From Torpedo marmorata (lineage: Eukaryota): 64,000 bases of DNA. Within the stretch, counting starts at the first letter, position 1. Each line of letters opens with the position of its first letter. Location: positions 54,932,001 to 54,996,000 of the forward strand of contig OZ360231.1 in the NCBI GenBank assembly GCA_977017645.1, read 5' to 3'. Shown here in pieces: positions 12,343-52,400 of this stretch. The notes under the pieces are model-generated. The model made no database searches. It saw nothing but the letters and a program-made list of their open reading frames with translations, and was not told the origin of the DNA. The translations under genes and the position numbers were made by a program.

Positions 12343-12907
12343 AGAATCAGAATTTATTGACATGAACAAGTCACGAAATTCGGTGTTTTGCGGCAGCATC
12401 ATAGTGCAAACATTCATATTATGAACCATCTAACAACAATAATATAAAAAATAAAAATATAAATAATAGTGCAGGAAAAGTAAGGCAGTGTCTTTGGTTC
12501 ATTGATTATTCAGGAATCTGATGGCAACGGGGAAGAAGCTATCCTTGCACCGTTGAGTGCTCGTCTTTAGGCTCCTCTACCATTTTCCCGATGGTAGCAG
12601 AGTGAAGAGGGCATGGCCTGGGTGGTGGGGGTCTTTGAGGATAGAGGCTGCTTTTTTAAGACACCACCTCATGTAGATGACCTCGATGGAGTGGAGTCTG
12701 GTGCCTGTGATGTCGCAGGCCGAGTTAACAACTCTCTGGAGTTTTTTCTTGTCCTGAGATTTGGCGCCTCCATACCAGACAGTGATGCAACCAGCCAGAA
12801 TGCTCTCCACGGTACATCTGTATAAGTTTTCAAGAGTCTTCGGAGACATACCGAATCTCCTCAAGCACCTCACAAAGTATAGCGTGATTGCATCAACATG
12901 GATGCTC
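12343..12907 (-). mobile_element. Rex1/Babar-like LINE 3' fragment, inverted relative to its neighbour
   Basis: ORF 12577-12942 is nearly identical in peptide to 11342-12052. Tail CAGAATCAGAATTTATT on the + strand. Confidence 0.85.
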
Positions 12908-13012
12908 CCCATGCAGTCCCCAGCCTTGTCACCTCTCCCCAAATAGTCCCCAGCCCCCTCCTCCCCTACCCACTGTCACCCATCCCCATAGTCCCCGTCC
13001 CTGTCCACACCT

Positions 13013-13995
13013 CCCCACCGTCCACACCTCCCCACCGTCCACCTCTCCCCATACAATCCCCACCCCGTCCACCTCTCCCCATACAATCCCCACCCCGTCC
13101 ACCTCTCCCCATACAATCTCCACCCCGTCCACCTCTCCCCATACAATCGCCACCCCGTCCACCTCTCCCCATACAATCCCCACCCCGTCCACCTCTCCCC
13201 ATACAGTCCCCACCCCGTCCACCTCTCCCCATACAATCCCCACCCCGTCCACCTCTCCCATACAATCTCCACCCCGTCCACCTCTCCCCATACAATCCCC
13301 ACCCCGTCCACCTCTCCCCATACAGTCCCCACCCCGTCCACCTCTCCCCATACAATCTCCACCCCGTCCACCTCTCCCCATACAATCTCCACCCCGTCCA
13401 CCTCTCCCCATACAATCGCCACCCCGTCCACCTCTCCCCATACAATCCCCACCCCGTCCACCTCTCCCCATACAATCGCCACCCCGTCCACCTCTCCCCA
13501 TACAATCCCCACCCCGTCCACCTCTCCCCATACAATCCCCACCCCGTCCACCTCTCTCCATACAATCCCCACCCCGTCCACCTCTCCCCATACAATCTCC
13601 ACCCCGTCCACCTCTCTCCATACAATCCCCACCCCGTCCACCTCTCCCCATACAATCCCCACCCCGTCCACCTCTCTCCATACAATCCCCACCCCGTCCA
13701 CCTCTCTCCATACAATCCCCACCCCGTCCACCTCTCCCCATACAATCGCCACCCCGTCCACCTCTCCCCATACAATCTCCACCCTGTCCACCTCTCCCCA
13801 TACAATCGCCACCCCGTCCACCTCTCCCCATACAATCGCCACCCCGTCCACCTCTCCCCATACAATCCCCACTCCGTCCACCTCTCTCCATACAATCGCC
13901 ACCCCGTCCACCTCTCCCCATACAATCCCCACCCCGTCCACCTCTCCCCATACAATCGCCACCCCGTCCACCTCTCCCCATACAATCGCCACCCC
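13013..13995. repeat. 30-bp minisatellite, ~32 copies
   Basis: Unit CACCCCGTCCACCTCTCCCCATACAATCCC with CCC/CTC/CGC variants and one 1-nt deletion near 13260. Confidence 0.97.
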
Positions 13996-14119
13996 TGTTC
14001 TCCCGCTGGTTCCCACCGTTTCGCCACCACCCCCACCCACCTCCTTAAATTCTCCAGCCCCAATACAAGGTAATCAAGAGTCGTTCACTAGTGAGAAACA
14101 CGTTGGTAGAGAGAGACGA

Positions 14120-14800
14120 TAAGGCGCTAACGAAATGCAGGTCTCTCCAGTGGTTGGACTGCGCCCTGAAGCCGGCGACAAGGTGGGGACGGGCGGTCGG
14201 GGCGACTGGCCGGGCGAGGGGTCCCGAACGCGCTGCTCACCTGCTCGGCACGGCCGCCGAGGAGTAGGCGCTGCCTCTGCTCCCCGTCAGCCACTCCATC
14301 CGAGTGGCCTGACACCACGGTCATTTGTATGGCGCCGGTCTCTGCCATACTCCGTGATCTGACTCCTTCGAAGAACACGAAAGACGAAGCAAGTCGTGGT
14401 TTCGCTTGTCCCAAGTCGGATCCTAATCCCGGAAGTGGCGGCTTCAAGTGAAGTCTGGAGAAAGTTTCTGCGAGTTGCCGGAGGTGCGGGAAAGCTGAAG
14501 TCTAATTTTTGGACAGAACACGTTGGACATGGACGAGGACCCGTGTGGGTGTGTGGAACCTCTCTCCTTCCCCGGGTGCTTCCCACCAATGAAGCAATGT
14601 GCTGGTCACACCTCTTTAATCGCGCACAGAAACTGGTGGGTGTGAGAAAATGGTGAGAGCGGGGCTGGCGTAAGTACTGAAGTCGTACCTTGGAATTCAA
14701 AACTGAAAGTCTTTCCGTGCTCGTTCACCAGACACTGTCTTGTCGGGAGCATCGGGGACAACGGTGCTGAGGCTCAGGGGCGGTGTTAGCATCATACATA
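14120..14800. promoter_or_regulatory. CpG-island promoter of the C3orf52-like gene
   Basis: CpG-dense, non-repetitive, spans exon 1. ETS motif CCGGAAGT at 14429-14436. Confidence 0.65.
14241..14348 (-). CDS. C3orf52: C3orf52/TTMP-like protein, coding exon 1
   Basis: ATG at 14348 within a CpG island. MAETGAIQMTVVSGHSDGVADGEQRQRLLLGGRAEQ, then a CAG|GTGAGC donor. Phase 0 fits exon 2. Confidence 0.72.
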
Positions 14801-25852: not shown

Positions 25853-27210
25853 AGAAAGGTCTGGATGACCACTTGAATCACCCAGGCAGAGAAGGCTGCA
25901 GGCCAAGTGCTGGAAGATGAGATTAATATGGATGGGTGTACATGTAGGCCAAATAGCCTGCTTCCATGTTGTGTAACTATATGACTTTAGCAGGGAAGAA
26001 CCTAACTAGGGCTATTAATTAAAATGGATTGAAGAAATCCAACAGGAATTCAGAAGAAATCCTTTTACCATAAGAATTGTGAGCATGTGGAGCTGGTTAT
26101 AACAAGTACTTGAAGGGAACTCAAGGAGTAAATGTAGAGGAAGGGAATAGAGGGTTGCACTGATCTGTTTTCCTGAGGAATAATGTAGAAAGATCAAGTT
26201 GAGCAAAAATACCAAATGGCCTGCTTCTGTGTAACATCAACTATATAACATCACATACAAATTACTTTAAAATTGACTTAATAATTTATTAAATATGCAA
26301 GTCACTCTTATCACAAGGAGTCAGATTTGGTTTATTTTTTGCAGATGTAAATGATCAGATGCTGGAATCTGGAGAAAAAGAACACCTTCCTTACTTATCA
26401 CCATACTGCCCTCTCCCCGTCACTCATTTTCATCCCTCCCCGCCTGTCTCCTGGTCCAATCCACTTACTGCTAATGTTATGGACCATGACTGACCATTTG
26501 GACTGCGGACGGTCAGCAGGAAGGATGAAGTCTTTTGGAGTACACACTGGGACCAGGTACTGAAAGAGTTAACTTGCCCAGGACTTGGTGTACCCAGAGA
26601 GAGAGAGAGAGAGCAGAGAGAGACAGGCTGTGGAAAAGATACTTTGTTGCACTTTTGCAAAAGCAGGTGCAGACCTCTGCAAAAAGCAGACAGTTGGGAG
26701 TTGCAAAGGCTAGAGAACACAGCCAAATCCAGGCTTGTGCATCCCAGAGAAAAGGCTGGAAGAATAGCACATGGCCTCCTATCTCAGAGAAATTCTGAGT
26801 TAAAAGCAACTTCTGTGGAGAACAGGCGTGAGATCAGCGAGACCAGCTGTGAGATCCAAGCACACGCCTTTATCAGTGGTATACTGATCTGAATTCGCAA
26901 ACCTTATGAAAACACAAGAAGGGTGTGGTAAACCACTTTAGTATGTATATATGTATTGTGGCCTGAGGCAAGTATGACCATGACCTGTCTGTCTGTCCCG
27001 GTGACTCCTCCCCCCTTTCCCCTGGAATAAAGGCCTTGAGCCATTGACTCCTCCCTCAGTTCCGGGACAATCCAGCAGGGATCACCAGGTCAAAGTGTAG
27101 CTTAGCCCTGGCCTGATTTCTGGTATTAAAAGCCTATTGATTTCCTGCACTTCCAGACTCGCGTCTGTCATTGATAGGTACATCAATTTTAATACCAGTT
27201 TTAAAATCCG

Positions 27211-28236
27211 ATGGAGAATTTTCTGAGGCCGGACAAGCTGGACATCGACCCCCTGGCTCAAGACGCTGCAAGTGACTTTGAACTCTGGCTGCGCTGCTTC
27301 GTAGCCTTCCTGAGGTCGACCAGAGCGGTTACAAACGAGAATAAACTCGACATCCTCATGTCCAGGGTAAGCAAACGAGTGTATGGCACTGTCAGAGACT
27401 GTGATACCTATGAGGATGCCTTGGAAGCCCTCCGAAGGCTGTACCTGACGCCGGTGACCGAGGTTTTCGCGAGGCACCGGTTATCGCAACGGTACCAGCG
27501 ACCCGGAGAGTCGATCTCTGAATATATCCAGGACGTGATGCTCCTGGTGCGGGCGTGCGATTGCCGAGCCCTGACGGCTGAGCAACACGCCGAAATATTG
27601 GCAAGGGACACGATCATTATGGGGCTCAGGTCGGTTTACATTCGCCAGCGATTGCTGGAACACGCCGACCTGACCCTGAGATCTACCGTTCAGAATGCCC
27701 TCACGCTGGAATCGGCGCTCAAGAACGCTGACGCTATGCAGGCGCAGCCTGCCTCTTGGATCGCCCCAACCGCCAGCCCTGCAAGCAACGCGACGGCCGC
27801 TGCCGTCTACCGGGACCCGCTCGCCGCCGCCGACGCTATCCGTGAGTTGGCCGCTGCCGCCGCTACCCGGGAGCCCGCCGCCACCCGTGAGTTAACCGCT
27901 GCCGCTGTCACCCGGGAGCCCGAGAAGTGCTACTTCTGCGGGCTCGACAAACACCCACGCAAGCGCTGCCCGGCCCGAGACGCGACTTGTTCTAGCTGCG
28001 GCAAGAAAGGCCACTACGCAAAGGCCTGCCGCTCCAAGTCGCGTACGGGTCCGAGCAGCGCCGCGTGCGAAGTAAGGGAGCGGCCATCTTACCTGTCGTC
28101 ACTTCCGGCGGAGACCTCGTGCGAGGAATGGAGGCGGCCATCTTGGCCTTCAGCACTTCCGGTTTCAAGCAGCGCCGCGTGCGAAGTAAGGGAGTGGCCA
28201 TCTTACCAGTCGTCACTTCCGGCGGAGACCTCGTGA
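27211..28236 (+). CDS. Gag of element A (two Cys/His knuckles)
   Basis: 341-aa ORF with CYFCGLDKHPRKRC and CSSCGKKGHYAKAC. Ends at an in-frame TGA; the frame continues open into pol. Confidence 0.88.
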   Translation: MENFLRPDKLDIDPLAQDAASDFELWLRCFVAFLRSTRAVTNENKLDILMSRVSKRVYGTVRDCDTYEDALEALRRLYLTPVTEVFARHRLSQRYQRPGESISEYIQDVMLLVRACDCRALTAEQHAEILARDTIIMGLRSVYIRQRLLEHADLTLRSTVQNALTLESALKNADAMQAQPASWIAPTASPASNATAAAVYRDPLAAADAIRELAAAAATREPAATRELTAAAVTREPEKCYFCGLDKHPRKRCPARDATCSSCGKKGHYAKACRSKSRTGPSSAACEVRERPSYLSSLPAETSCEEWRRPSWPSALPVSSSAACEVREWPSYQSSLPAETS

Positions 28237-28437
28237 GAGGAATGGAGGCGGCCATCTTGGCCTTCAGCACTTCCGGTTTCTACATTTCCGGCGCGGCCAT
28301 TTTACAACCTCGCCGCGGCTCTGCCAGCACTTCCGGCGCCGCCATCTTGTAGCGACACGTGTGCGCTACGGGAGCTGCCATCAGCGTCGGATCAAGACGA
28401 CTCGTCGGATCAAGACTACGTCTCGACCCTGGCATCC

Positions 28438-31323
28438 GTGACGCTGGATCAGAGCGCGCCCCATCAGCTGTCCAGATCGATGATGGACATACTAGTTGAG
28501 GGGCATAAGACTACCTGCCTGTTCGACACAGGCAGTACTGAAAGTTTTGTCCACCCAGACACTGCCCAGCGCTGTGGCCTCACAATTGTACCGGTAAGCC
28601 AGAGGGTGGCCATGGCGTCTGGAACCCACACAACAGACATCCGGGGGGGTTGTGTGGCGAATATAGTAGTGCAGGGCACGGAATATCGCGGGTTTTCATT
28701 GATGGTCATGCCCCGTTTGTGTGCTCCTGTATTGCTGGGACTGGACTTCCAAAGCCACCTGCGAAGCGTCACCATGCACTATGATGGGCCCCACCCCCCG
28801 ATCGTTGTGACCAACCCCCAGTACTTGAATAATACGCCCCAGACTACCTGTGGTCTCTCCACGCTGAAGACCCAACCCCCGCCACTCTTCGCCAACCTGA
28901 CCCCTGACTGTAAGCCTGTAGCGACTAAAAGTAGGCGATACAGTGCAGGGGACAGGGCTTTCATTAAGGCGGAAGTGCATCGTCTACTGGGGGAAGGGAT
29001 CATAGCACCCAGTAACAGCCCCTGGAGAGCACAGGAAGTCGTGGTGAAGAACGGGGCTAAGAGCCGGATGGTGGTGGACTATAGCCAGACCATTAACCGG
29101 TTCACGCAACTGGATGCCTATCCGCTGCCGAGAATCGCGGATATGGTCAACCAGATTGCGCAGTATAAAGTATTCTCCACTATTGACCTAAAGTCGGCTT
29201 ACCACCAGCTTCCGATTCGCCGGGAAGACCGAGCGTACACCGCTTTCGAGGCGGACGGCAGATTATTCCATTTTCTGCGCGTCCCCTTCGGGGTAACAAA
29301 TGGGGTATCCGTGTTTCAACGGGAGATGGACAGGATCATTGACCAGTTCAAACTCACTGCCACCTTCCCGTACCTGGACGACATCACCATTTGTGGTCAT
29401 GATCGCCAGGATCACGATAGGAACCTTCGGAAGTTCCTACAGGCGGCTAAGACGCTGAACCTCACCTATAACGAGGAGAAATGCGTGTTCGGGACTACCC
29501 GACTCGCTATCCTGGGGTGCGTCGTGGAGAACGGGGTGATTGGACCCGACCCCGACCGCATGCGCCCCCTATTGGAACTTCCGATTCCCCTCACCCCCAA
29601 AGCCCTTAAACGATGCCTCGGGTTCTTCTCGTATTATGCGCAGTGGGTCCCAAACTACGCGGACAAAGCCCGACCCCTCGTCAAGTCCACCAAGTTTCCC
29701 CTTGCAGCGGAGGCACGTGAGGCTTTCGACCTCATAAAAGGGGACATCGCCCGAGCAGCGATGCACGCGGTGGACGAGTCGGAACCTTTTCAGGTGGAGA
29801 GTGACGCCTCGGACTTCGCACTGGCTGCTACCCTCAACCAGGCGGGAAGACCGGTAGCGTTTTTCTCCCGCACCCTTCAAGGCCCCGAAATTCGGCACTC
29901 CGCGGTAGAGAAAGAGGCCCAGGCCATTGTTGAGGCTGTTCGGCACTGGAGGCACTATCTCGCCGGAAAACATTTTACCCTGCTGACGGACCAGCGCTCC
30001 GTCGCATTCATGTTTAACAGCCAGCAGCAGGGTAAAATCAAGAATGACAAAATCATGAGGTGGAGAATAGAACTCTCCACCTACAATTACGACATCATGT
30101 ACCGGCCCGGGAAGCTCAACGAGCCCCCTGACGCTCTATCCCGGGGATCGTGCGCCAGCGCGCAGATCGACCGGTTATACTCCCTACACAACGACCTCTG
30201 CCACCCAGGAGTCACCAGGCTGTTCCACTTCATCAAAGCACGGAACCTGCCTTTCTCCCTGGATGAGGTCAGAACCATGACCAGCAGCTGCCGAGTCTGT
30301 GCGGAATGCAAACCGCAGTACTACCGCCCCGTCAGAGCACAGCTGGTCAAGGCCACACGCCCGTTCGAACGTCTCAGTGTAGACTTCAAGGGCCCCCTTC
30401 CCTCCACGAACCGCAATGTGTACTTCCTTAACATCTTCGATGAGTACTCGCGGTTCCCCTTTGCCATCCCCTGCCCAGATACCTCGGCGGCTTCGGCTAT
30501 CAAGGCCCTCCGCCAGGTATTCACCTTGTTCGGGTTCCCCAGCTATATCCATAGCGACCGGGGATCCGCGTTCATGAGCGAGGAGCTGCGACAGCATTTG
30601 CAGACCCGAGGCATCGCCACCAGTAGGACCACGGGGTACAACCCACGGGGGAACGGACAGGTAGAGAGGGAGAACGCCACTGTATGGACAGCTACACTAC
30701 TGGCCCTGAAATCAAAAGGGTGGCCAGTGGCCCGCTGGCAGGAGGTTCTCCCGGACGCCCTCCACTCTATACGATCCCTCTTATGTACTGCCACTAACGC
30801 TACCCCTCACGAACGTCTCTTTTCCTTTCCCAGAAAATCGACTACCGGGACTACCCTCCCTGCCTGGCTGACGTCCCCGGGACCGGTGCTACTCCGCAAA
30901 CATCTTCGGAGTAGCAAGTACGAGCCCTTGGTCGAGAGGGTGCAGCTGATCCATGCGAACCCGCAGTACGCATTCGTGGTTTTCCCCGACGGGCGGGAAG
31001 ACACGGTGTCAATACGGGACCTGGCGCCTGCAGGAGCGTCAGAAGAGGTCCCCGACAGCGGGAACGCCGGGTCACAGCTGCCCCCTCCGGCCCATCCGCC
31101 TCCCAGCACGGCGGGTACAACGCCCCGGCCGGAGCTGGAAAGGCCACAAGCCAGGCAGGAGGCAAACCAGACCCAGACCCACCCTACAACACCTACTCCC
31201 ATTCCACAACCACAACCATCTCCGCAGGCATCACGTACCCTCATTCCACAACCACTACCATCACCGCTGGTACTACGCAGGTCACAGCGGCGAATCCGGC
31301 CGCCGGTTAGACTCAACCTGTAG
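28438..31323 (+). CDS. Pol of element A (protease, RT, RNase H, integrase)
   Basis: LFDTGS; YPLPRI...DLKSAYHQ...PFG...YLDD; ESDAS; HHCC; VDFKG...HSDRG...GQVER. Same frame as gag. Confidence 0.93.
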   Translation: MTLDQSAPHQLSRSMMDILVEGHKTTCLFDTGSTESFVHPDTAQRCGLTIVPVSQRVAMASGTHTTDIRGGCVANIVVQGTEYRGFSLMVMPRLCAPVLLGLDFQSHLRSVTMHYDGPHPPIVVTNPQYLNNTPQTTCGLSTLKTQPPPLFANLTPDCKPVATKSRRYSAGDRAFIKAEVHRLLGEGIIAPSNSPWRAQEVVVKNGAKSRMVVDYSQTINRFTQLDAYPLPRIADMVNQIAQYKVFSTIDLKSAYHQLPIRREDRAYTAFEADGRLFHFLRVPFGVTNGVSVFQREMDRIIDQFKLTATFPYLDDITICGHDRQDHDRNLRKFLQAAKTLNLTYNEEKCVFGTTRLAILGCVVENGVIGPDPDRMRPLLELPIPLTPKALKRCLGFFSYYAQWVPNYADKARPLVKSTKFPLAAEAREAFDLIKGDIARAAMHAVDESEPFQVESDASDFALAATLNQAGRPVAFFSRTLQGPEIRHSAVEKEAQAIVEAVRHWRHYLAGKHFTLLTDQRSVAFMFNSQQQGKIKNDKIMRWRIELSTYNYDIMYRPGKLNEPPDALSRGSCASAQIDRLYSLHNDLCHPGVTRLFHFIKARNLPFSLDEVRTMTSSCRVCAECKPQYYRPVRAQLVKATRPFERLSVDFKGPLPSTNRNVYFLNIFDEYSRFPFAIPCPDTSAASAIKALRQVFTLFGFPSYIHSDRGSAFMSEELRQHLQTRGIATSRTTGYNPRGNGQVERENATVWTATLLALKSKGWPVARWQEVLPDALHSIRSLLCTATNATPHERLFSFPRKSTTGTTLPAWLTSPGPVLLRKHLRSSKYEPLVERVQLIHANPQYAFVVFPDGREDTVSIRDLAPAGASEEVPDSGNAGSQLPPPAHPPPSTAGTTPRPELERPQARQEANQTQTHPTTPTPIPQPQPSPQASRTLIPQPLPSPLVLRRSQRRIRPPVRLNL

Positions 31324-32232
31324 ACATAATAATGACTATGTAAATAATCTATGTTTATTTGTGTTTTTTTAATTACGGTATCCACTTCACCCCCCCGTCG
31401 GACTTGTTCTAAAAGAAGGGGTGAATGTGGTAAACCACTTTAGTATGTATATATGTATTGTGGCCTGAGGCAAGTATGACCATGACCTGTCTGTCTGTCC
31501 CGGTGACTCCTCCCCCCTTTCCCCTGGAATAAAGGCCTTGAGCCATTGACTCCTCCCTCAGTTCCGGGACAATCCAGCAGGGATCACCAGGTCAAAGTGT
31601 AGCTTAGCCCTGGCCTGATTTCTGGTATTAAAAGCCTATTGATTTCCTGCACTTCCAGACTCGCGTCTGTCATTGATAGGTACATCAAAGGGAACGTCAT
31701 CAGAGAAGAAAAACAAGTATTTGTAAGCATAAACAGTCATTGTCTCTCTCCAACGTTCATTCAGAAGTACTTCTACCAGCACACCAAGCTGAATTTGAAA
31801 CCTGAACTTAGAGAGTGGAATTTTGTGGACTGTATTATTCTTTTTTTGACTGACTTGTTTTTATGACTGACCTGGGGTTTTTTGGGGAAAGTTTTTCCAT
31901 TTTTACATAAGGGTTGGGCACAGACTGTATGGTCTGGGCTTTACACACACACACCTTTTAGATAAGAATAGTGTTTATAGATGTTTATAGTGGGGTTAAT
32001 TGTTGTGAAATATATGTTTAATTGTGTTTAATAAATATAAATTTCAATTTTACCCCTTTTGCATTGCGTCTTCTGTCATTGCTGGTTTGATTTTGTAACA
32101 AAATTGGGGGCTTGTCGTGGGATTTGAATCAAAATCCATCTTGGTAATTGAAGGAATTCCAGTTTGGTTTAAGGCATTCCTTTTGTAAAGCTAATTAAAA
32201 GCTAGTGTGTGTGTAACGAAAAACCAGCAACA

Positions 32233-34036
32233 ATGGATGTAGAACATTTTTTGGAATCACCTGAACCTGATACTTTAAAAAAGGCGAAAAAGGAACAGTT
32301 AGTGGCTATAGCAACAAAGCTGGGCATTGCTTCTGTAAAAGCATCTATGAAAAAGGCAGAGATTGGGAGAAAAATTGTCAAATACTATATAAAAGAAAAA
32401 AAGTTTGAGGAGAGCATGTGAGAGCAGTTTCCCAAGGGTAAACCTTCTGAAAACATACAGTTGGAACTAAAGAAATTGGAATTGGAGGCAGCCAGGGAAC
32501 AAAAGAAATTAGAATTGGAGGCAGAAAGAAATTAGACATGGAAATGGAACAAAAGAAATTTGACATGGAATTGGAATTGGAACAAAAGAGATTAGACTTA
32601 GAGAACGATGAGAAAAATAGGAGATATGAGCTGGAAAAGATGAGGTTGGAAAATGAGAGGAGACAAGAAGAGCACCAAGATCAAATTCGTCATCCTGCTG
32701 TGGGGTTTTTGGCTAGTAGGGAAGTTAGGTTGGTTCCTCCATTTGAGGAGGCAGAAATAGATAAGTACTTCCAACATTTTGAGAAGGTGGCTGTAAATTA
32801 AAATGGCCACAAGACCAATGGTCTCTTATGTTACAAAGTGTAATTAAAGGAAAAGCTCAGCAAGCTTATTGTACTGTTACCACGGAGCAAGCTGCTGATT
32901 ATGAAACGGTAAAAAAGGCTATAGTCCAGGCTAATGAATTAGTTCCAGAGGCTTATAGACAGAAGTTTAGAAATTTAAAAAGATTAGCAACCAAATCTTA
33001 TACAGAGTTTGCCTATGAAAAGGTTGTGTGTTTTGACAGGTGGTGCACATCTAAGGCGGTAAACAATGATTACAATCAATTGAGAGAATTGATAATAATC
33101 GAGGAGATAAAAAGGTGTGTTCCTGAGGATATTAAGGCATACTGAGATGAAAAGGAGGTGAAAACTTGGCAAAATTCAGCTAAGTTAGCAGATGAATATG
33201 CTTTAACCCACAAGCCTAAGTGGACGTCAGGTAGAATTTTCCAAAAGGTCACTGTGGATAATCAGAAGCAAGTGGAAAGTAAGTTTGGAAGTGATGTTAA
33301 GAAAAGGGATGAAGGAAAGTGGAAAAGGGAAAACCATTTGGGTCCCATTTGCCACTACTGTAGGAAGGCTGGTCATATGATAGCAAGCTGTCCAGTGTTG
33401 AAAAAGAAGAGAGAAAAGGATGCAACACCTAATGCTTGTAATCAGAGTGAGAAGAGGGATAACACCCAGGAAGGAGATAAATTTACTGACAAAGTTAAAG
33501 ATGTATTTAAACCTTTTGTGACTGATTGTTTTGTTTCAGTTAAGGCAGGATCAAAACAAGTTCCAGTGAAAATCTTGCGAGATACTGGAGCCGCTCAGTC
33601 ACTTGTGTTAGATAGTGTCTTGGAATTTTGTGAAGCTACTGACACCGGTGACATAAATTTAATTAAAGGAATTAGTGGTGATGTTGAGTCCATTCCTTTG
33701 CACAAAATATTATTGGACTAAGGCTTGGTGGAAGGACCAGTTATAATAGGAGTGAGATCAGAGTTGCCAGTAGAAGGAGTCTCACTGTTGTTAGGCAATG
33801 ACTTGGCCAAGGGTAAAGTAGTTCTTGCAGTGCGAATGACCACTAAGCCAGTCATTGATAAGTCAGAGAAAGACTCTGATATTTATCCGGCATGTGCCAT
33901 AACCAGGGCCATGTCTAAGAAAAATGTCACTGTAGAGAAGGCAGTGGAAAATAACATGGTGAAAAAAAAAGACAGTGATAATCAAGAAAAACTGGAAAAG
34001 GTTGAGCAATCTCCTATGTTACACCCATCCACTGAT
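32233..34036 (+). pseudogene. disrupted gag/protease of the Gmr1-like element
   Basis: PPFEEAEIDKYFQHFEKVA, KGKAQQAY...ELVPEAYRQKFR (SCAN-like capsid), CHYCRKAGHMIASC and ILRDTGA, with several stops and frameshifts. Confidence 0.85.
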
Positions 34037-34050
34037 AAGACACCTAAAGG

Positions 34051-37000
34051 TACCACCACCACTTTAGCGGTTGTACCGCTTCTCGAGCGACGGAGGGGGG
34101 TAGCACTGGGATATATACAGTCCAGTGTTAATTATGGGATGTTCTTTTTTCTTGCTTTTCTATTATTTCACTCTATTTGAGGAGAAAATATGTAATCAAC
34201 GGAATAGGAGGGATGCGTCGGCGGATCTGACAGATAGAGAATGTTTAAAATTTAATTATGGTTGATTCTAGAAGTATTAATTTTGTAAGTATTAATGTTA
34301 ACGGGCTTAATAATCCAATTAAAAGGAAAAAAACTTTGGCATATATTAAAAAATTAAAAGTAGATATAGCTTTTTTACAGGAAACACATTTGACTGATAA
34401 AGAACATCAAAAGTTGAAGAGAGAATGGGTAGGACATGTAGTAGCTTCGTCTTTTAATTCTAAAGCGAGAGGAGTAGCAATTTTAATCAATAAAAAATTA
34501 CCATTTAAAATACAATCAGTAATGACGGATATAGCTGGTAGATTTGTTATGGTGCATTGTCAAATCTATTCAGAAACATGGACTTTTTTAAATTTATATA
34601 TTGTAAACCCAGAGGATGAACAATTTATTCAAGATATCTGTTTACATTTATCTGAAGCTAAGGAAAATATTTTAATTGGGGGAGATTTTAATTGTTGTCT
34701 TAATACGAATATGGATAAAACATCTAAAACATCTGTTAAACCTAAAATAGTTAAAAGAATTATTAATTTAATGGATGATTTAAATTTAGTAGATATTTGG
34801 AGAAAGGTAAACCCTAGAGAAAAAGATTATTCATTTTATTCTTTTCGACATAACTCATTCTCGAGGATTGATTTATTTTTAATATCGTCACAAATTCAGG
34901 ATAGAATAACTCAAATTTCTTATAAAGCAAGAATAATTTCAGACCATTCACCGTTATTAATGACTTGTATAATTCCAGAGAAAGAAAAAACTGTATATAA
35001 TTGGAGATTAGATTCTTCTTTATTAAATAGAAAAGATTTTTGTGATTATATGAGAAAAGAAATTCAGGAATTTTTAAGAATTAATAATAATTCAGTTGAT
35101 GATAAGTTTATAATTTGGGAATCTTTAAAAGCATATTTAAGTGGATTGATAATAAGCTTCTCGGCAAAAATTAGAAAAGATTATTTGAAGGAAGAAGAAA
35201 AATTGGAGGGGGAGATTGAAGTTATGGAAAAAGATTTTCAAAGAAACAAAACAATTCTTAAGAGACAACGTTTAATGGGGAAAAAATTACATTATAATAT
35301 ATTACAAACTCGAAAAATGGAAAAATTAATTGGTAGAACAAAGCAAAGATATTATGAATTGGGAGAAAGAGCACATAAAGTTTTAGCATGGCAATTAAAG
35401 AAAGAACAAGTTTCCAAAACTATAAATGCTATAAAGAAAAGTAATGGAGATATAACTTATAAACCTCAAGAAATAAACAATTCTTTTAAAGAATATTATC
35501 AAAATTTATATACTTCACAAATGAGTCAAGATGTTGTAAAAATTGATGATTTTTTATCCAAAATTATGTTGCCCAAATTAAATAGTTCTAATAGAGATTT
35601 GTTAGATCTACCAATTACAATGAGAGAAGTAGGTGAAGCTTTATCATCATTGAATAGTGGTAAATCTCCTGGTGATGATGGATTTCCTGTAGAGTTTTAT
35701 AAGAAGTTTAAAGATTTATTGATACCTATATATATGGAAGTATTGACTCAAATAAAGGAAACTCAGTTATTACCGAAAACTTTTTTAAATGCTGTTATTA
35801 CAGTTATACCAAAGAAGGATAGAGATGTATTGAAAACTGAATCGTATAGACCTATATCATTGTTAAATGTAGATTATAAATTAATGGCGAAAATCTTGAC
35901 AAATAGACTAGCTAAGTTTTTACCATTTTTAATACATCCAGATCAAGCAGGATTTATTAAAAATAGATATTCAAAGGATAATATAGCAAGATTAATAAGT
36001 TTGATTAATTTACAAAAGAAGAAACAGGATTTACCGTTAGTGATAGCATTAGATGCAGAAAAAGCATTTGATAGGTTAGAGTGGAAGTTTTTATTTAAGG
36101 TTTTAGAGAAATATGGATTTGGAAATACGTTTATAAATTGGATTAAAACTATATATAAGGAACCTATAGCTAAAGTAATTACAAATGGTCAAATATCATC
36201 TAAATTTTCTTTGACACGGTCAACAAGACAAGGATGTCCATTGTCACCTGCCTTATTTGTATTGGCAATAGAACCGTTGGCGGAAATGATCAGGAAAGAT
36301 ATGAATATAAAAGGGATAAAAGTAGGTGCAGAAGAGCATAAAATTAGTTTGTTTGCAGATGATGTATTAATATATATGACAAAGTCTATTGAATCACTTC
36401 AACAATTAGATAAAATATTGAGGGATTATGGTGAAATATCTGGATATAAAATAAATTCGGATAAAAGTGAGATAATGGCTTTATCTCAAGGAGATTATAC
36501 TAAATGTAAAGAAGTTACAAAATTTAAATGGGCTAAAGAAGCTATTAAATATTTAGGAGTTAAAGTGGATACAAAGTTAGAAAATTTATATAAATTAAAT
36601 TACATACCTTTATTTCAGAAAATAAAGAAGGATTTGGATAATTGGAAAGATTTACCTATAACTTTAATAGGAAGAGTGAACTGTATTAAAATGAATATTT
36701 TTCCAAGAGTTCAATATCTTTTTCAATCTATACCTTTTGGTATTCCTCAAAATTTTTTTAAAGATTTAAAAAGTATTATTAGAAAGTTTTTATGGAAAGG
36801 AAAACTGGCAAGAGTAAGTATGGATAAATTAACTTGGGAATATGAAATGGGTGGATTACAACTTCCTAATTTTCAATATTATTATAAGGCAGCACAATTA
36901 AAATTTATAAATGAATTATTTGATTTAACTAAAAACACGGCATGGATTAATATAGAATTAAGTAATATAGGAGAAAGAAATAAGGAAGATATTATTTATA

Positions 37001-38329
37001 AATGGAATTCTAAATTATTATTGATTAAAAAGAAAAAGTCACCGATTATTAGACATTTATTAGAGATTTGGAATCAATTAGATAATGAAATAGGGCGAAA
37101 AGGATCAATCTCTTTAAATATGCCATTATATCAGAATTTATTATTACCATTTTCTATGGATAATCAATTTTTAAAATTATGGTATCAAAAAGGAATTAAG
37201 AAGATTAAAGATTGTTTTGAGGCAGGAAGATTTGTTACTTTTTCCAGATTGAAAGAAAAATTTGGAATAATGGATAATACAATTTTGGCTTATTATCAAG
37301 TTAAAGGATTTTTAGTTGAGAAATTAGGGAATCAATTAATATCTCCTAGACAGGATGGGTTAGAGTTACTAATTACTAATGGAAATGTTAATAAATTTAT
37401 ATCGTAAATGTATAAATTATTTCAGAAAAAGATACCTAAAGTAGGATTGCATAAATCTAGATTAAATTGGGAATCAGATCTAAATACTAATATAGATGAA
37501 CAACACTGGAAAGAATTGTGTAAATTGAGTATGACTAAGATTATTAATGTTAGATATAGATTAGTACAGTATAACTTTTTTCATCAATTATATATAACAC
37601 CCAAAAAATTAAAGAAATTCAATCCGGCATTGTCAGATATGTGTTTTAGATGTAAAGATGAAATAGGTTCTTTTGTACATTGTACATGGTCATGTTTGAA
37701 AATTAAAAATTTTTGGTCTAAAGTCAAAGATTTTTTAGATAGAATTTTTAATATTATGATTCCAATGGATCCTATGATATTTTTATTTGGAGATATAAAA
37801 AAAATGAGTATTGGAAATAGATTAAATATGTACCAAATAGAATTTTTACGAATTGTGTTAGCTATTTCAAAAAAATGTATTGCTATTACTTGGAAATCAG
37901 ATTTAGATTTGAATTTAGATAGATTACATGCAGAGTTACGTTCTTGTATACCACTCGAAAAAATTACGTATAATTTACGAGACAAATATCATTTCTTTTT
38001 GAAAATTTGGAGCCCATATATGAGAATTATGGGTATGAATTAATTCTCTAAAAGTTAGTACCGCTGACAAAAGTATCCTCCATATACAAATAGAGTTAGT
38101 CTGAAATAGTTTTCTCCTCATACTAACTCTCTTAACTTTATTTCTCATTCTATTTCTTTCCTTTTAACTAACATTTCTATATATTCTTTTTTTTTTCTCT
38201 TTATTAGAATAGTGTGGGAGGGAGGGAATGGGGGATGGTAAAAATATCACATGTATTTTGAATAATATATTATTTTTGACTAAGTATTTTGTGATTTTAA
38301 AAATTAAATAAAAATGAAAAAAAAAAAAA
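34051..38329 (+). mobile_element. L1/Tx1-like LINE with full-length ORF2, truncated upstream of ORF2
   Basis: 14-bp TSD AAGACACCTAAAGG at 34037-34050 and 38330-38343; poly-A tail; no ORF1. Confidence 0.95.
34258..38043 (+). pseudogene. L1-like ORF2 (APE endonuclease, RT, cysteine-rich region) with one in-frame stop
   Basis: NVNGL, LQETH, GGDFN, SRID, SDH; DAEKAFD, RQGCPLSP, FADD. TAA at 37405-37407 where the copy near 978 has CAA. Confidence 0.9.
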
Positions 38330-38478
38330 AAGACACCTAAAGGCACAGATTTGTCACTATCCCGACAGGAGTTAACAGCAAGGCAAAAGGACGATCCTGA
38401 TCTTGCTGAGGTGAGGGATAAGGTTCTCTCTGAAGAGGAGATTAAAAAGGTGCCAGTGGGTTATTATGAAAAAGATGG

Positions 38479-40392
38479 GTGTTGATGAGAAAGTGGAGAC
38501 CATGTGATGTTCCTGCCAATGAAGAATGGGCAGTAGTGCAGCAGGTTGTGATCCCTAAAGTATATAGGGATGCAATAATAACTTTGGCTCATAGTACACC
38601 CTTGGGTGATCACCTTGCGGTGAAGAAAACTATAAGGAAGATAATGAAACAATTTTATTGGCCCAGTTTGAGAAGGGAGGTGATAAGCTTTTGCCGGGCC
38701 TGTCACACTTGTCAGGTAGTGGGTAAACCTAATCAGGGTCCCCCGGTGGCACCCTTGCAACCTATCCCTGCTTTCAGTGAGCCTTTCTCGAGAGTAATTG
38801 TGGACTGTATTGGCCCATTGCCCAAAACCAAAGCGGGGAATGAGTATTTGTTAACAATTATGTGTGCAGCCACCAGATTTCCAGAGGCCATTCCTCTGAG
38901 AAACATTAAAGCAAAGACAATTGTAAAGGCAATGGTAAAGTTTTTCACCTTGGTAGGTTTGCCAAGGGAAATTCAATTAGATCAGGGCAGTAATTTCATG
39001 TCAGGCGTTTTCCAACAAGTGGTTGATGGACTGGGAGTTAATCAGATTGTATCCTCTGCGTACCATCCAGAAAGTCAAGGGGCCTTGGAGAGGTTCCATT
39101 CGACTTTGAAAAACATGATTAGAACCTATTGTTGTGAAAAGGAAAAGGATTGGGATGAGGGGGTTCATTTCTTGTTATTTGCAGCGAGGGAGTCTGTCCA
39201 AGAATCACTTGGTTTTAGTCCATTCGAGTTAGTTTTCGGACATGAGGTGAGAGGTCCTTTAAGATTATTAAAAGAACAGTTGATTAATAGTGATGTGCAT
39301 TTAAATCTGTTAGATTATGTTTCAAAATTTAAGTATCGGTTGAATAGGGCTTGTGAGATGGCAAAGGAGAATTTAAAGGCCACTCAACAGAGAATGAAGG
39401 TTTGGTATGATCGAAAGGCTAAGATGAGAACTTTTAAACCTGGTGAGAATGTATTAGTTCTGTTTCCCATCCATTCAAATCATCTTAGGGCTAGATTTTC
39501 AGGACCCTATAGAGTTAAGTCAAAAATTAATGATGTCACTTATGTCATAGAAACACCTAATCGCAGACGAGACACACAGGTCTGTCATGTAAATATGATT
39601 AAGCCATATTTTGAACAGGTGCCGCAAAAAGGGACTGAACATTTACCAGAGGTACTGGTTATTGACAGGGGTAAGGAGGAGACAGATAAAACCAGATTCA
39701 GAGAGGGTCATGGGACTGTTCATTCTCGGGGTTATGTAGTAGGACAGGGGAAGTTGGCGCCAGTAGAGGCAAAGGTTGTGACTATTTCCGAGTTCCCTGT
39801 TCCAACTGGTAAGAAAACTCTGAGGAGGTTCCTGGGAATGATTGGCTACTACCGCAAGTTCTGTAAAAACTTTGCTGATCTTGCGCTCCCTCTCACAAAT
39901 TTGCTTAGAAAGAAAGAAAAATTTGTATGGTCGACAGGTTGTCAGGAAGCATTTGTCAAATTGAAAGCCATGTTATGCCACCAACCTGTGCTTAAGTCAC
40001 CTAATTTAGAACAGCCGTTTTCTTTAGCCGTGGATGCCAGCGATGAAGCTGTGGGCGCGGTACTGTTACAGAAGAAGAACGAAGAGGACATTGACCATCC
40101 GGTATCCTACTTCTCGAAGAAGTTCAATGATCATCAAAGGAATTATTCAACCATAGAAAAAGAATTGTTGGCTCTTGTGTTGGCTCTACAACACTTTGAT
40201 GTGTATATCTCTACAGCTCAAAAACCACTCATAGTGTATACTGACCATAATCCATTGGTTTTTCTTTGTGAAATGAAAAATAAGAATCGACAGTTGTTGA
40301 ATTGGAGTCTAATTTTGCAAGAATATGATTTGGTAATCACACATATAAAAGGTAAAGATAATGTAATTGCTGATTGTCTTTCGAGATGTTAA
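38479..40392 (+). pseudogene. integrase fused to an RT C-terminal remnant and RNase H of the Gmr1-like element
   Basis: H..H..CHTC, IVDCIGPLP, LDQGSNF, GALERFH, then GYVVGQG...RRFLGMIGYYRKF...AVDAS...ADCLSR. The RT core (YxDD) is absent. Confidence 0.88.
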
Positions 40393-42260
40393 ACTTTATC
40401 AATGAAAGTAGTTCATATTTTGTATATGTGGATGAACATTGTAGATTTTGTTTATATTGTGACACCTCAATTACTTTCCAAAATTTTGTTCTTGCAGACC
40501 AAAATTTTCTTTGTGGGTGGGAGGTGTTATGGACCATGACTGACCATTTGGACTGCGGACGGTCAGCAGGAAGGATGAAGTCTTTTGGAGTATACACTGG
40601 GACCAGGTACTAAAAGAGTTAACTTGCCCAGGACTTGGTGTACCCAGAGAGAGAGAGAGAGAGCAGAGAGAGACAGGCTGTGGAAAAGATACTTTGTTGC
40701 ACTTTTGCAAAAGCAGGTGCAGAACTCTGCAAAAAGCAGACAGTTGGGAGTTGCAAAGGCTAGAGAACACAGCCAAATCCAGGCTTGTGTATCCCAGAGA
40801 AAAGGCTGGAAGAATAGCACATGGCCTCCTGTCTCAGAGAAATTCTGAGTTAAAAGCAACTTCTGTGGAGAACAGGCGTGAGATCAGCGAGACCAGCTGT
40901 GAGATCCAAGCACACGCCTTTATCAGTGGTATACTGATCTGAATTCGCAATCCTTATGAAAACACAAGAAGGGAACGTCATCAGAGAAGAAAAACAAGTA
41001 TTTGTAAGCATAAACAGTCATTGTCTCTCTCCAACGTTCATTCAGAAGTACTTCTACCAGCACACCGAGCTGAATTTGAAACCTGAACTTAGAGAGTGGA
41101 ATTTTGTGGACTGTATTATTCTTTTTTTGACTGACTTGTTTTTATGACTGACCTGGGGTTTTTTGGGGAAAGTTTTTCCATTTTTACATAAGGGTTGGGC
41201 ACAGACTGTAATGGTCTGGGCTTTACACACACACACACACCTTTTAGATAAGAATAGTGTTTGTAGACGTTTATAGTGGGGTTAATTGTTGTGAAATTAT
41301 ATGTTTAATTGTGTTTAATAAATATAAATTTCAATTTTACCCCTTTTGCATTGCGTCTTCTGTCGTTGCTGGTTTGATTTTGTAACACTAACACATTTCC
41401 CCCACTGAATCCCCACCCCCAACTGATTCCATCTTCCCTCATGGTTCCCAGTATCATGGCAAAGCACTGGTAGCCTTTGTGTTACTGCTCATCACTCTCC
41501 AGCAGCCATTCCACCTTCACTCTCCTCCCACCCCCAAAATCTGGCTCCATCTATCCTTTTTCCCCCCACCCATCACCCACTTGTTTCTGTCTCTCAACTC
41601 TACCCCTTCCCCACTTGGTTCATCTATCCATCATCCTTCTCCCCTCCCATCATCTACTGACCCATCACACCTCTGCCCCTCTCCCCTTGGGCAGTGTACC
41701 TTCCCTCTGCACTCTTAGACCCAATACAGGGTCTCGACCCAAAACGTTGATGATTCCTTTCCCTCCCCCCTGCCCCTCACATATGCTGCTCACTCCACTG
41801 AGTTCCTCCAGAAATTTGTTTTTTATTTGCTAAAAATTGTAAACAATTCTGCAGTCTCACCAAGGAACCAATTTCCAAGTGTGATTTCACCAAGACCCTA
41901 TTATAATTGTATTATCTTTACTCGTACTCAAATCCTCTTGCAATTTCCCACATTTTTTTTCTCAAATGACACACATGCAGCTGACATTTCTAATTACTTG
42001 GTTATATCAATGATGGACAGCAGACAGAATAGGTATTAATGTGAATAATGTTCACTCCCATTCTATGGCAAGACTGTAACATATTCCTTGTTCTAATTTG
42101 AGGTTTCCTTCCTTTGTTTCCTATCCTTGCCAACATGAGGAATATGGATCATTATCAGGAAAAACAGTACCTTGCGTGGGTCTGGCAGATGGAGTGCAAT
42201 GTTGGTAAACGTGAGGTTATCCATTTTGGAAGGAAAAATAGAAGGTCAGCTTATTATTTA

Positions 42261-49447: not shown

Positions 49448-52400
49448 TGTGGTAAACCACTGTTACATGTATTGTGGGCTGGGGATAAGTCTGGGCATGT
49501 CCTGCTGTCTGTCCCGGTGGCTCCTCCCCCTTCCTCCCCCGAATAAAGGCCCTTGTGCCACTGCTCCACCCCCAGTCCGGGATAGATCAGCAGGTCTCAG
49601 CAGGTCAACTGCAGCTCCCTTTTATAGCTAATAAAAGCCTACTATTCTTGCACTACTTCCTGCCTCTCGGGAATCATTGATAGGCCTATCAATTTTATTA
49701 GCTATAAAGTCTGATGGAGAGCGTCCTGAGACCGGATAAGTTAGACATCGATCCTCTAGCTCCAGACGCCGGTAACGCTTTTGAACTCTGGCTGCGTTGC
49801 TTTGAGTCCTTCTTAAGGACGATCAAGGTGAAAAACGAGGACGAAAAACAGACGATCCTCGTGTCCAGGGTAAGCCCTCGGGTATACTCGACAATCCGGG
49901 ATTGTCAAACGTACGAGGAGGCTATGGACGCTTTGAAAAGACTGTACATAATGCCCGTGAACGCGGTCTACGCAAGGGACAGGCTATCAACGCGGCAGCA
50001 GCGGCCCGGGGAGTCGATCTCTGAATTTGTACGAGATATACAGTCGCTGGTGCGGGCGTGCGATTGCAGAGCGCTGACGGCTGAGCAGCATGCGGAACTG
50101 CTGGGGAGAAATCAGGTCGGTATACGTGGGCCAGCGGCTGCTGGAGCACGCCGACCTGACTTTCCGTTCCGCGGTTCAACTGGCCCACACGCTGGAGGCC
50201 GCGCTGCGGAACTCTGATGCTATGCAAGCGCGCGACCTTCAGCCGGCCTCGTGGACAGCCCTGACACCCAACCCTGCCGGTGATCTGACCACTGCCGCCG
50301 TCTGCCGCGACCCGATCGCCGCCGCCGCCATCCGTGAACTGACCGCTACAGCCGTTAACCGAGAGCCCAAGAAATGCTATTTCTGCGGGCTCGAGAAGCA
50401 CCCTTGCAAACGCTGCCAGGCCCGAGACGCGACCTGCTCCAGCTGCGGCAAGAAAGGCCATTACGCAAAGGCCTGCCGCTCTAATCCGCAAGCGGGTCCG
50501 AGCAGCGCCGCGTGTGAGATTCGGGAGTGGCCATCTTACCTTCCGTCACTTCCGGCGTTGTACTCACCCACGGTTGCGACCTCGTGGAAGAGTGGAGGCG
50601 GCCATCTTGGACACCGGTACTTCCGGCTCTGCCATCTTACAGCTCCACATCGGCACTTCTGGCACTTCCGGCGCCGCCATCTTGCAGCTCCAGCCATGAC
50701 ACGTGCGACTCACGGAGGCGGCCATCTTCTTCAGCGCCGGATCAAGACTACATCCTGACCCTAGCATCCGTCACCCTCGACCAGAGTGCACCCCACCAGC
50801 TGTCCCGATCCATGATGGACATCCTGGTTGAGGGGCACAAGACCACCTGCCTGTTCGATACAGGCAGCACGGAGAGCTTTATACATCCGGACACAGTACA
50901 GCGATGTGGCCTCACTACAGTACCGGTAAGCCAGAGGGTGGCCATGGCTTCCGGGTCGCACACAATGGACATCCGGGGGGGTTGTGTAGCGAACATTGTA
51001 GTACAGGGCACAGAATGCCGGGACTTTTCATTACTTGTCATGCCTCGTTTGTGTGCGCCGGTACTACTGGGACTTGAATTCCAGAGTCACCTACGAAGTG
51101 TCACGATGCGCTACGACGGGCCCCACCCTGCAATCATGGTAGTTAACCACCAGTATCTTAACAACGGGCCTCAGACTACCTGTGGCCTCTCCACACTTAA
51201 GATCTCGCCCCCGTCGCTATTAGCCAACCTGACCCCTGACTGTAAGCCCGTGGCAACTAAGAGCAGGCGACTATTGGAGGAGGGGATCATCAAACCGAGT
51301 AATAGCCCCTGGAGAGCCCAAGTAGTCATGGTAAAGAACGGGGCCAAGAGCAGGATGGTGGTGGACTATAGTCAAACGATCAACAGGTTCACACAACTGG
51401 ACGCATACCCGTTACCACGAATCGCGGATATGGTGAACCAAATAGCCCAGTACAGGCTATTTTCGACTATAGACCTTAAGTCAGCTTATCACCAGCTCCC
51501 TATCCGCCGGGAGGACCGCACGTACACCGCTTTTGAGGCGGATGGCAGGCTGTTTCATTTCCTGCGTGTCCCCTTCAGAGTCACAAATGGGGTGTCCGTG
51601 TTCCAGCGGGAGATGGACAGAATAGTTGACCAATTTAAGCTCAAAGCCACCTTCCCATACCTGGACGACATCACCATATGTGGTTATGATCGCCAGGACC
51701 ATGATAATAACCTTCGGAGGTTCCTGCAGGCGGCCAAGGCGCTAAACCTCACATACAATAAAGATAAATGCGTGTTCGGGACCATCCGACTCGCTATTCT
51801 GGGGTGTGTCGTTGAGAACGGGGTTATTGGACCCGACCCCGACCGCATGCGCCCCCTGCTGGAACTTCCGCTTCCCCACACCCCCAAAGCCCTTAAATGA
51901 TGCCTGGGGTTCTTCTCGTACTATGCGCAGTGGGTCCCTAATTACGCGGATAAAGCCCGATCCCTTGTCAAGTCCACCACGTTTCCCCTTGCATCGGAGG
52001 CACGTGAGGCTTTTGATCTCATAAAAGGGGACATTGCCCGAGCAGCAATGCATGCGGTGGATGAATCGATACCTTTCCAGGTGGAGAGTGACGCATCAGA
52101 CTTCGCGCTGGCTGCTACCCTCAACCAGGCGGGAAGACCGGTGGCATTCTTCTCACGGACCCTCCAAGGCCCCGAAATTCGGCACTCCGCGGTTGAGAAA
52201 GAGGCCCAGGCCATAGTGGAGGCTATTAGGCACTGGAGGCACTATCTCGCCGGTAAGCACTTTACCCTGCTGACGGATCAACGCTCTGTTGCGTTTATGT
52301 TTAACAACCAGCAGCGGGGTAAGATCAAAAACGATAAAATCATGAGGTGGAGAATAGAGCTCTCCACCTACAATTACGATATCCTGTACCGACCCGGGAA

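Follow-up and report, generated by a model that had tools for sequence, protein, structure and literature searches.

Self-pairing between the LTR and the predicted primer-binding site of a Gypsy lineage in Torpedo marmorata, and its probable role in priming

Element A and the pairing at its 5' LTR junction

Which RNA primes DNA synthesis in a Gypsy element that lacks the TGG-starting primer-binding site (PBS) typical of tRNA-primed Gypsy elements (Mag, CsRN1, Gmr1)? The question is raised by element A, located in a window of 64,000 nucleotides of the Torpedo marmorata genome (contig OZ360231.1, positions 54,932,001 to 54,996,000 of the forward strand; all coordinates below are those of the window). 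Element A (26924-31687; all its features are on the plus strand) is delimited by identical 5' and 3' LTRs (26924..27185 and 31426..31687, TG...CA, 262 nt each) and flanked on both sides by the 5-bp target site duplication (TSD) AAGGG. A polypurine tract with a TGAA spacer is present in the sequence at 31411..31425, and gag-pol (27211..31323) encodes two zinc knuckles, protease, reverse transcriptase (RT), RNase H and an integrase without chromodomain. These features and the gag-PR-RT-RH-IN order are those of Ty3/Gypsy, and Ty3 is also the top PDB match.

A is a young element. An in-frame stop at 28234-28236 (codon 342) breaks its gag-pol; as this stop is present in 0 of 20 other copies, family A has a single ORF of ~1370 codons. 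The linker between gag and protease contains a tandem duplication of 114 nt (28046-28273), most family-A copies having two units, and the stop of A falls within the second of these. A has inserted into the 5' LTR of element B (26475-41387), in which integrase precedes RT/RNase H, a Gmr1-like order. Element B has an ordinary TGG-type PBS at ~32105, after a 4-nt gap, and provides a control from the same window. An ORF of a LINE (34249-37407) lies inside element B, and elsewhere in the window a long array of 30-nt tandem repeats (12869-14122) is open in several frames.

In A, the terminal CA of the 5' LTR (27185) is followed by a single A (27186) and then by the predicted PBS, TTTTAATACCAG (27187..27198). 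The original prediction held that no TGG-type tRNA PBS follows this LTR, that 27187-27198 reads as the perfect reverse complement of a segment within the same LTR, 27120-27131, and that the 3' end of this arm faces U5, as a primer would; on all three points the sequence agrees. The predicted self-primer arm, CTGGTATTAAAA (27120..27131), forms 12 Watson-Crick pairs with the PBS, interrupted at both ends, and contains ATTAAA, a variant of the poly(A) signal, at 27125-27130. Contigs from two sequencing runs aligned here differ at both sides of one pair, with T>A at 27126 and A>T at 27192. A has 12 nt complementary to its own LTR 1 nt after the LTR, and PMC6317226 takes elements to be self-primed where the PBS is complementary to the own LTR over at least 10 nt and starts 0-5 nt after it.

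Chance was considered as the source of this pairing, and was ruled out by LTR shuffles together with the fold z-score: none of 5000 dinucleotide shuffles of the LTR reached a run of 12 (maximum 11), and folding gave z = -2.8 for 27050-27215, the interval that had been proposed for folding, and z = -4.4 for 27112-27205. Eleven of the 12 helix pairs have a probability of at least 0.97, also within the whole predicted leader, and the innermost pair has 0.43. Enclosed by this helix lies an R/U5 hairpin region (27132..27186), for which two inner helices had been proposed. CAGAC-tcgc-GTCTG (27155-27168) is indeed part of the minimum free energy (MFE) structure. The other, CCTATTGA/TTGATAGG, can be drawn, yet has a probability of only ~0.03 in A because ATTGAT/ATCAAT wins; in several relatives its counterpart is dominant and present in the MFE. 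No Rfam match was found at 26900-27300.

Covariation of arm and PBS in copies and relatives

In 20 further copies of family A, with LTR pairs that are 98.5-100% identical, the PBS is the same as in A; the one change found in a 5' arm is private, and the 3' LTR of that copy still matches the PBS. More variation is available genome-wide, where 36,374 sites match the constant frame of the junction. For an unselected test, we took the first 30 of these sites, the variable part having played no role in their selection. At least 12 Watson-Crick pairs were found in 25 of these 30 copies and at least 11 in 28, with 16 distinct PBS 12-mers among them, and their 180 free positions comprise 174 Watson-Crick pairs, one G·U and five mismatches. 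The window itself holds a related element, C, on the plus strand (LTRs at 49448-49691 and from 53693), where arm (49621-49636) and PBS (49693-49708) form a helix of 16 pairs with letters that differ from those of A.

A wider set brought together 110 elements in which the LTR end could be defined. Near-identical copies of family A made up 30 of them, and two out of 91 upstream regions from the same genome had been left out for absence of the junction. A run of at least 12 is present in 92 of the 110 (14 nt in L144), and in 90 of the 95 elements with a run of at least 10 the helix begins exactly 1 nt past the LTR end. The mean run is 14.4 against the own LTR versus 5.8 against LTRs of other families and 4.9 against shuffles, in a selected set limited to those 19 of 29 distinct PBS 12-mers that have a run of at least 12. 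A count of 741 Watson-Crick pairs out of 741 is circular, since these elements were picked on a perfect run.

Like pairing was seen in metagenome relatives with 50-65% RT identity. Among 88 metagenome or metagenome-assembled genome (MAG) loci, 57 had enough upstream DNA; an inverted repeat of at least 12 nt lies upstream of gag in 28 of these versus 0 of 57 control windows, although many come from one record set and are not independent, and a run of 12 is missing from the other 29. Where these loci have LTR pairs, the repeat mostly begins 1 nt after the CA. For a supported RT subclade (L177, L180, L182, L208), neither an LTR pair nor a self-complementary junction helix was found; its members could be decayed or tRNA-primed, so the self-pairing trait may not be universal. 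A divergent member (L183, positions 1-150) has a 14-nt match that begins 2 nt after the LTR, and carries TTTT in place of RCC after its arm. Eight contigs in bacterial MAGs (L221-L228) also encode relatives, likely as host contamination.

During plus-strand synthesis, LTR elements copy their primer into the PBS. A self-primer that is copied in this way should keep a strict Watson-Crick match, whereas a helix with a structural role would be expected to pass through G·U states. We therefore counted the states of the pair at arm position 9 throughout the genome, which gave 7286 C-G, 6575 U-A, 74 U·G and 64 C·A copies, while the reversed-pattern controls gave 0. Both Watson-Crick states are found with five or more U5 backgrounds, as judged by eye from the first 100 rows of each. 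As such, there is no wobble lineage at the tested arm-PBS pair, unlike the inner hairpin: in the inner helices, 108 of 725 predicted pairs (15%) are G·U.

The discordant copies themselves were fetched for 40 of the 74 U·G and 40 of the 64 C·A cases (the first 41 rows of each list, with one skipped). Among the 40 U·G copies, the change is private to the 5' LTR in 20 and restricted to the PBS in eight, three of the latter being one duplicated insertion and another having a doubtful 3' LTR, with 12 unusable; among the 40 C·A copies, it is private to the 5' LTR in eight and restricted to the PBS in 22, with 10 unusable. In total, 22 of the 80 have no usable 3' LTR. This mirror pattern looks like the outcome of mutation after insertion. 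Two copies with a C·A mismatch and both LTRs alike (L250 and L251) were considered as an inherited mismatch lineage; independent PBS mutations fit the counts. Strong selection for perfect pairing could yield similar counts, and the wobble result therefore supports, rather than proves, copying into the PBS.

Cut site, primer and rival explanations

Where would such a primer begin and end? In A, a putative TATA-like box (AATAAA, 27026..27031; its role follows from its spacing to an initiator-like motif) precedes the initiator-like TCAGTT (27056..27061), and CAGT occurs at like spacing in other copies inspected. Of the 30 unselected copies, 29 retain GAATAAAGG, at a distance of 83-106 nt upstream from where the arm ends. 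GAATAAAGG and the initiator-like CAGT are ~32 nt apart; by the usual spacing of a TATA-like box and an initiator, these two motifs predict a start near 27058, ~60 nt upstream of the arm, which would place the arm at +63 to +74. The 3' end of the arm falls at a TAAA(A)/RCC junction in all but one of the 18 distinct PBS classes (17 of 18), the remaining one having GCG. This constant feature, mostly succeeded by a hairpin, resembles a cut site more than a signal, and we infer a cut at 27131/27132 (AAAA/GCC) in A.

We consider self-priming in either form, in cis or in trans, to be the best reading of these data, with a probability of about 0.87. The original prediction of a tRNA-independent, self-priming Gypsy element is backed by evidence at the level of single copies. 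As to mechanism, we lean towards a fold-back followed by a cut at AAAA/GCC and priming by the 5' fragment, with occasional exchange within a dimer. The R-region arm would fold onto the PBS of its own RNA, where a cut, likely made by the RNase H of the element itself, would free its 3' end. With transcription predicted to start near 27058, this would leave as primer a 5' fragment of ~74 nt (~55 nt in most sister families), paired through its last 12-15 nt. Extension by RT would then run through U5 as far as the cut, with a jump to the 3' copy of R immediately past the arm. The paired primer letters would subsequently be copied into the PBS during plus-strand synthesis, resetting the match each cycle. 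While the primer would mostly stay on its own RNA, it may now and then land on the PBS of a co-packaged partner. That the fold would also hide the 5' poly(A) signal may be an added advantage.

What there is to say on cis versus trans comes from two clean copies with a foreign PBS, a third noisier one, and one jump recombinant. Two subfamilies, X (1840 concordant copies) and Y (769), can be told apart by two sites in the arm and two in the PBS, and 10 of 10 double-discordant copies carry exactly the letters of the sister family, out of nine allowed combinations. Ancestry was painted with 50 diagnostic sites, and along whole elements. This showed L462 to be X throughout with a Y PBS, and L465 to be Y throughout with an X PBS, both pure over ~4 kb and both LTRs except for the two diagnostic PBS sites, with a foreign tract of less than 30 nt, intact TSDs and LTRs that are 99% alike. 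A foreign PBS beside a native U5 and leader calls for a primer from another molecule, and both copies would bear the mark of a primer taken from another RNA, although conversion over a short tract, or RT switching templates in the final bases of the minus strand, could mimic them. The third foreign-PBS copy, L383, is older and noisier. Together, the wobble-free covariation and the foreign-PBS copies both fit a PBS that is copied from an LTR-derived RNA primer.

The jump recombinant, L463, has U3 and arm of X in both LTRs, U5, PBS and 5' interior of Y, and again a 3' interior of X, with an intact TSD. Its first jump appears to have taken place between the arm and the end of U5, which fits a template that was cut after the arm, although a premature jump could mimic this. 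Furthermore, six or seven copies (L460, L461, L464, L466, L468, L469 and L354) carry a foreign arm in the 5' LTR only; wherever a 3' LTR could be located, its arm is native. This indicates that conversion between subfamilies happens. We read these 5'-LTR arms as gene conversion; the proposed mechanism does not account for them. L413 likewise has the arm of its sister subfamily in the 5' LTR next to a native U5 and PBS. In a family A-like group with an AAT arm and AAT-type PBS, a 3' LTR is available for seven of nine copies; in six of these seven, only the 5' LTR has changed. Possibly, such 5'-LTR-private arm changes involve more than ordinary conversion.

The same copies bear on whether priming in trans could be the rule, with a separate short LTR transcript (from TATA to poly(A) signal, supplied by 3' or solo LTRs) or the 3' copy of R being trimmed at the arm and priming uncut genomic RNA. 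Putnam et al. 2007 reportedly proposed such a model, with a short LTR RNA as primer, for Nematostella in their supplement. It would account for L462 and L465 with their need for a primer from another molecule, for the arm ending at the poly(A) signal in every shark-type copy examined, and it would leave the template with a whole R for the first jump. However, the intramolecular helix, with its pair probabilities of at least 0.97, would block the PBS; clean copies with a foreign PBS are rare, two among the ~2600 of X and Y; L463 puts the jump downstream of the arm; and the hairpin directly after the arm is found again in distant relatives. We therefore regard trans-priming as the rule as possible, but rather unlikely. 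Could the helix instead merely hide the 5' poly(A) signal, or serve packaging, while some other primer is used? Hairpins that occlude a poly(A) signal are known in retroviruses, and the arm indeed overlaps A(A/T)TAAA in 14 of 18 PBS classes. Yet the arm of the other four classes holds GTTAAA or TTTAAA, and in two of these a canonical signal lies elsewhere than in the arm. A helix of purely structural role would be expected to accept G·U in the way the inner helices do, but U·G at the tested pair is no commoner than C·A. The exact distance of 1 nt to the LTR argues against it as well, and no other primer site is left, making this explanation very unlikely.

That leaves a primer derived from a tRNA. 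The PBS of A matches the 51 distinct host tRNAs over at most 5 contiguous Watson-Crick nucleotides (7 with G·U), within a partial set that has 15 anticodon labels and is without Leu, Asn, Met, Tyr and others, and without mitochondrial tRNAs; no tRNA gene was found within the 64-kb window. The most plausible candidate would be the 5' half of tRNA-Ile(AAT), which, according to PMC6317226, is the primer of plant Bianca copia elements. Among PBS variants, the common TTATTAGC(A) ones (AGC variants) pair over 8-9 nt with the anticodon arm of host tRNA-Ile(AAT). The 6575 copies with TTATTAAC, though, keep only six pairs, and the AAC and CAC variants five to six. Moreover, the Ile half binds more weakly than the own arm in both A and C (for A, -8.6 versus -13.4 kcal/mol), and the PBS tracks the LTR through 16 variants in 30 copies. 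Such covariation argues strongly against any single tRNA as primer, and appears to largely refute priming by a tRNA half, which we deem highly improbable.

Placement of the lineage and implications

The nearest proteins are those of rays and catsharks (~76-85%), followed by anemone (64%), nematode and damselfly (57-64%); no relatives were found in viral contigs. With these identities, and with metagenome contigs that share the pairing, the lineage is not confined to vertebrates, contrary to what had been proposed. Metagenome and MAG loci are spread over the RT tree, in which the lineage forms one side of a 100/100 branch versus three Gmr1-like rows only. That the integrase has no chromodomain, and that the element may lie outside the Tf1/sushi group, had been suggested from the start. 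The first of these holds, and the second is the best reading: neither PF00385 nor PF24626 was detected in 10 of 10 proteins (E 0.05), which thus have neither the Tf2-type SH3 GPY/F feature of the integrase nor a chromodomain, and neither domain is among the precomputed ones of the 120 relatives listed. For RT-RNase H, the score is 188 bits versus Ty3 and 582-815 within the lineage. Chromoviruses were also sought in the same genome; each of the 12 SH3_Tf2-1 loci inspected appeared to be either partial or Gmr1-like. The 15 Chromo matches among 95 candidates were judged to be host genes by their short frames and low number; with no abundant chromovirus among them, sushi-type elements may be scarce in this genome.

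Self-priming is best known from Tf1, where the first 11 nt of the mRNA pair with the PBS and RNase H cuts at 11/12, as described in PMC7175516. Like Tf1/Tf2 of S. pombe, Tj1 of S. japonicus and the Tf1/sushi chromoviruses including Tcn1, the A lineage has a PBS complementary to its own LTR directly after the LTR end and apparently no tRNA counterpart, and like the Tf1 group it has a structured R/U5 between arm and PBS (PMC7175516, PMC4600332). In contrast to Tf1, where priming is proven and the primer is the 5' end of the mRNA, the arm of A is predicted to begin ~60 nt into the transcript and to cover the poly(A) signal, and its priming is deduced from sequence. Outside chromoviruses, self-priming has been predicted from an LTR-complementary PBS for the plant copia lineage TAR (Houba/Osr-1) in PMC6317226; TAR belongs to another superfamily and kingdom, suggesting an independent origin.

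In the available portions of PMC3601003, PMC6317226, PMC7175516, PMC4600332 and PMC5006619, self-priming is discussed for chromoviruses and the TAR lineage only, and those of PMC2774666 and PMC6238403 hold nothing on self-priming, the latter also being silent on the PBS of Cigr-1, a clade of Gypsy that it reports in molluscs as well. Full-text literature searches listed no paper on self-priming in this lineage. The original prediction had raised the possibility that self-primed animal Gypsy families were already catalogued, and this is probably right. The supplement of Putnam et al. 2007 is said to describe self-primed Gypsy families of Nematostella, with a PBS of 12-15 nt complementary to an internal part of the LTR, a gap of 5-10 nt between LTR and PBS, and relatives in frog, lancelet and sea urchin. 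In the A lineage, which includes the sea-anemone proteins at 64%, this gap is 1 nt; we think it probable that the two are the same lineage. Cigr-1 of Ciona has LTRs of ~245 nt, one ORF of ~1200 aa and a Mag/SURL-like gag, and the A lineage is similar in its LTRs of 233-262 nt, single ORF of ~1200-1370 aa and double zinc knuckles, making identity with the Cigr-1 clade a lead only.

To our knowledge, the genome-wide wobble test and the foreign-PBS chimeras are additional to prior work. Only tentatively can one go as far as an undescribed, animal-wide, non-chromovirus Gypsy lineage, having a 55-75 nt R primer that is cut at the poly(A) signal and is swappable between genomes, which would amount to a second, independent self-priming chemistry with the primer recorded in tens of thousands of PBS copies. 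If it is true that an abundant animal lineage, with more than 36,000 junctions in one genome, needs no tRNA, then self-priming would be common in animals and would have arisen more than once. Such elements would presumably escape both PBS-based LTR finders and silencing by tRNA fragments. Furthermore, their copies form a natural experiment, allowing primer identity, and priming in cis versus in trans, to be tested from sequence alone.
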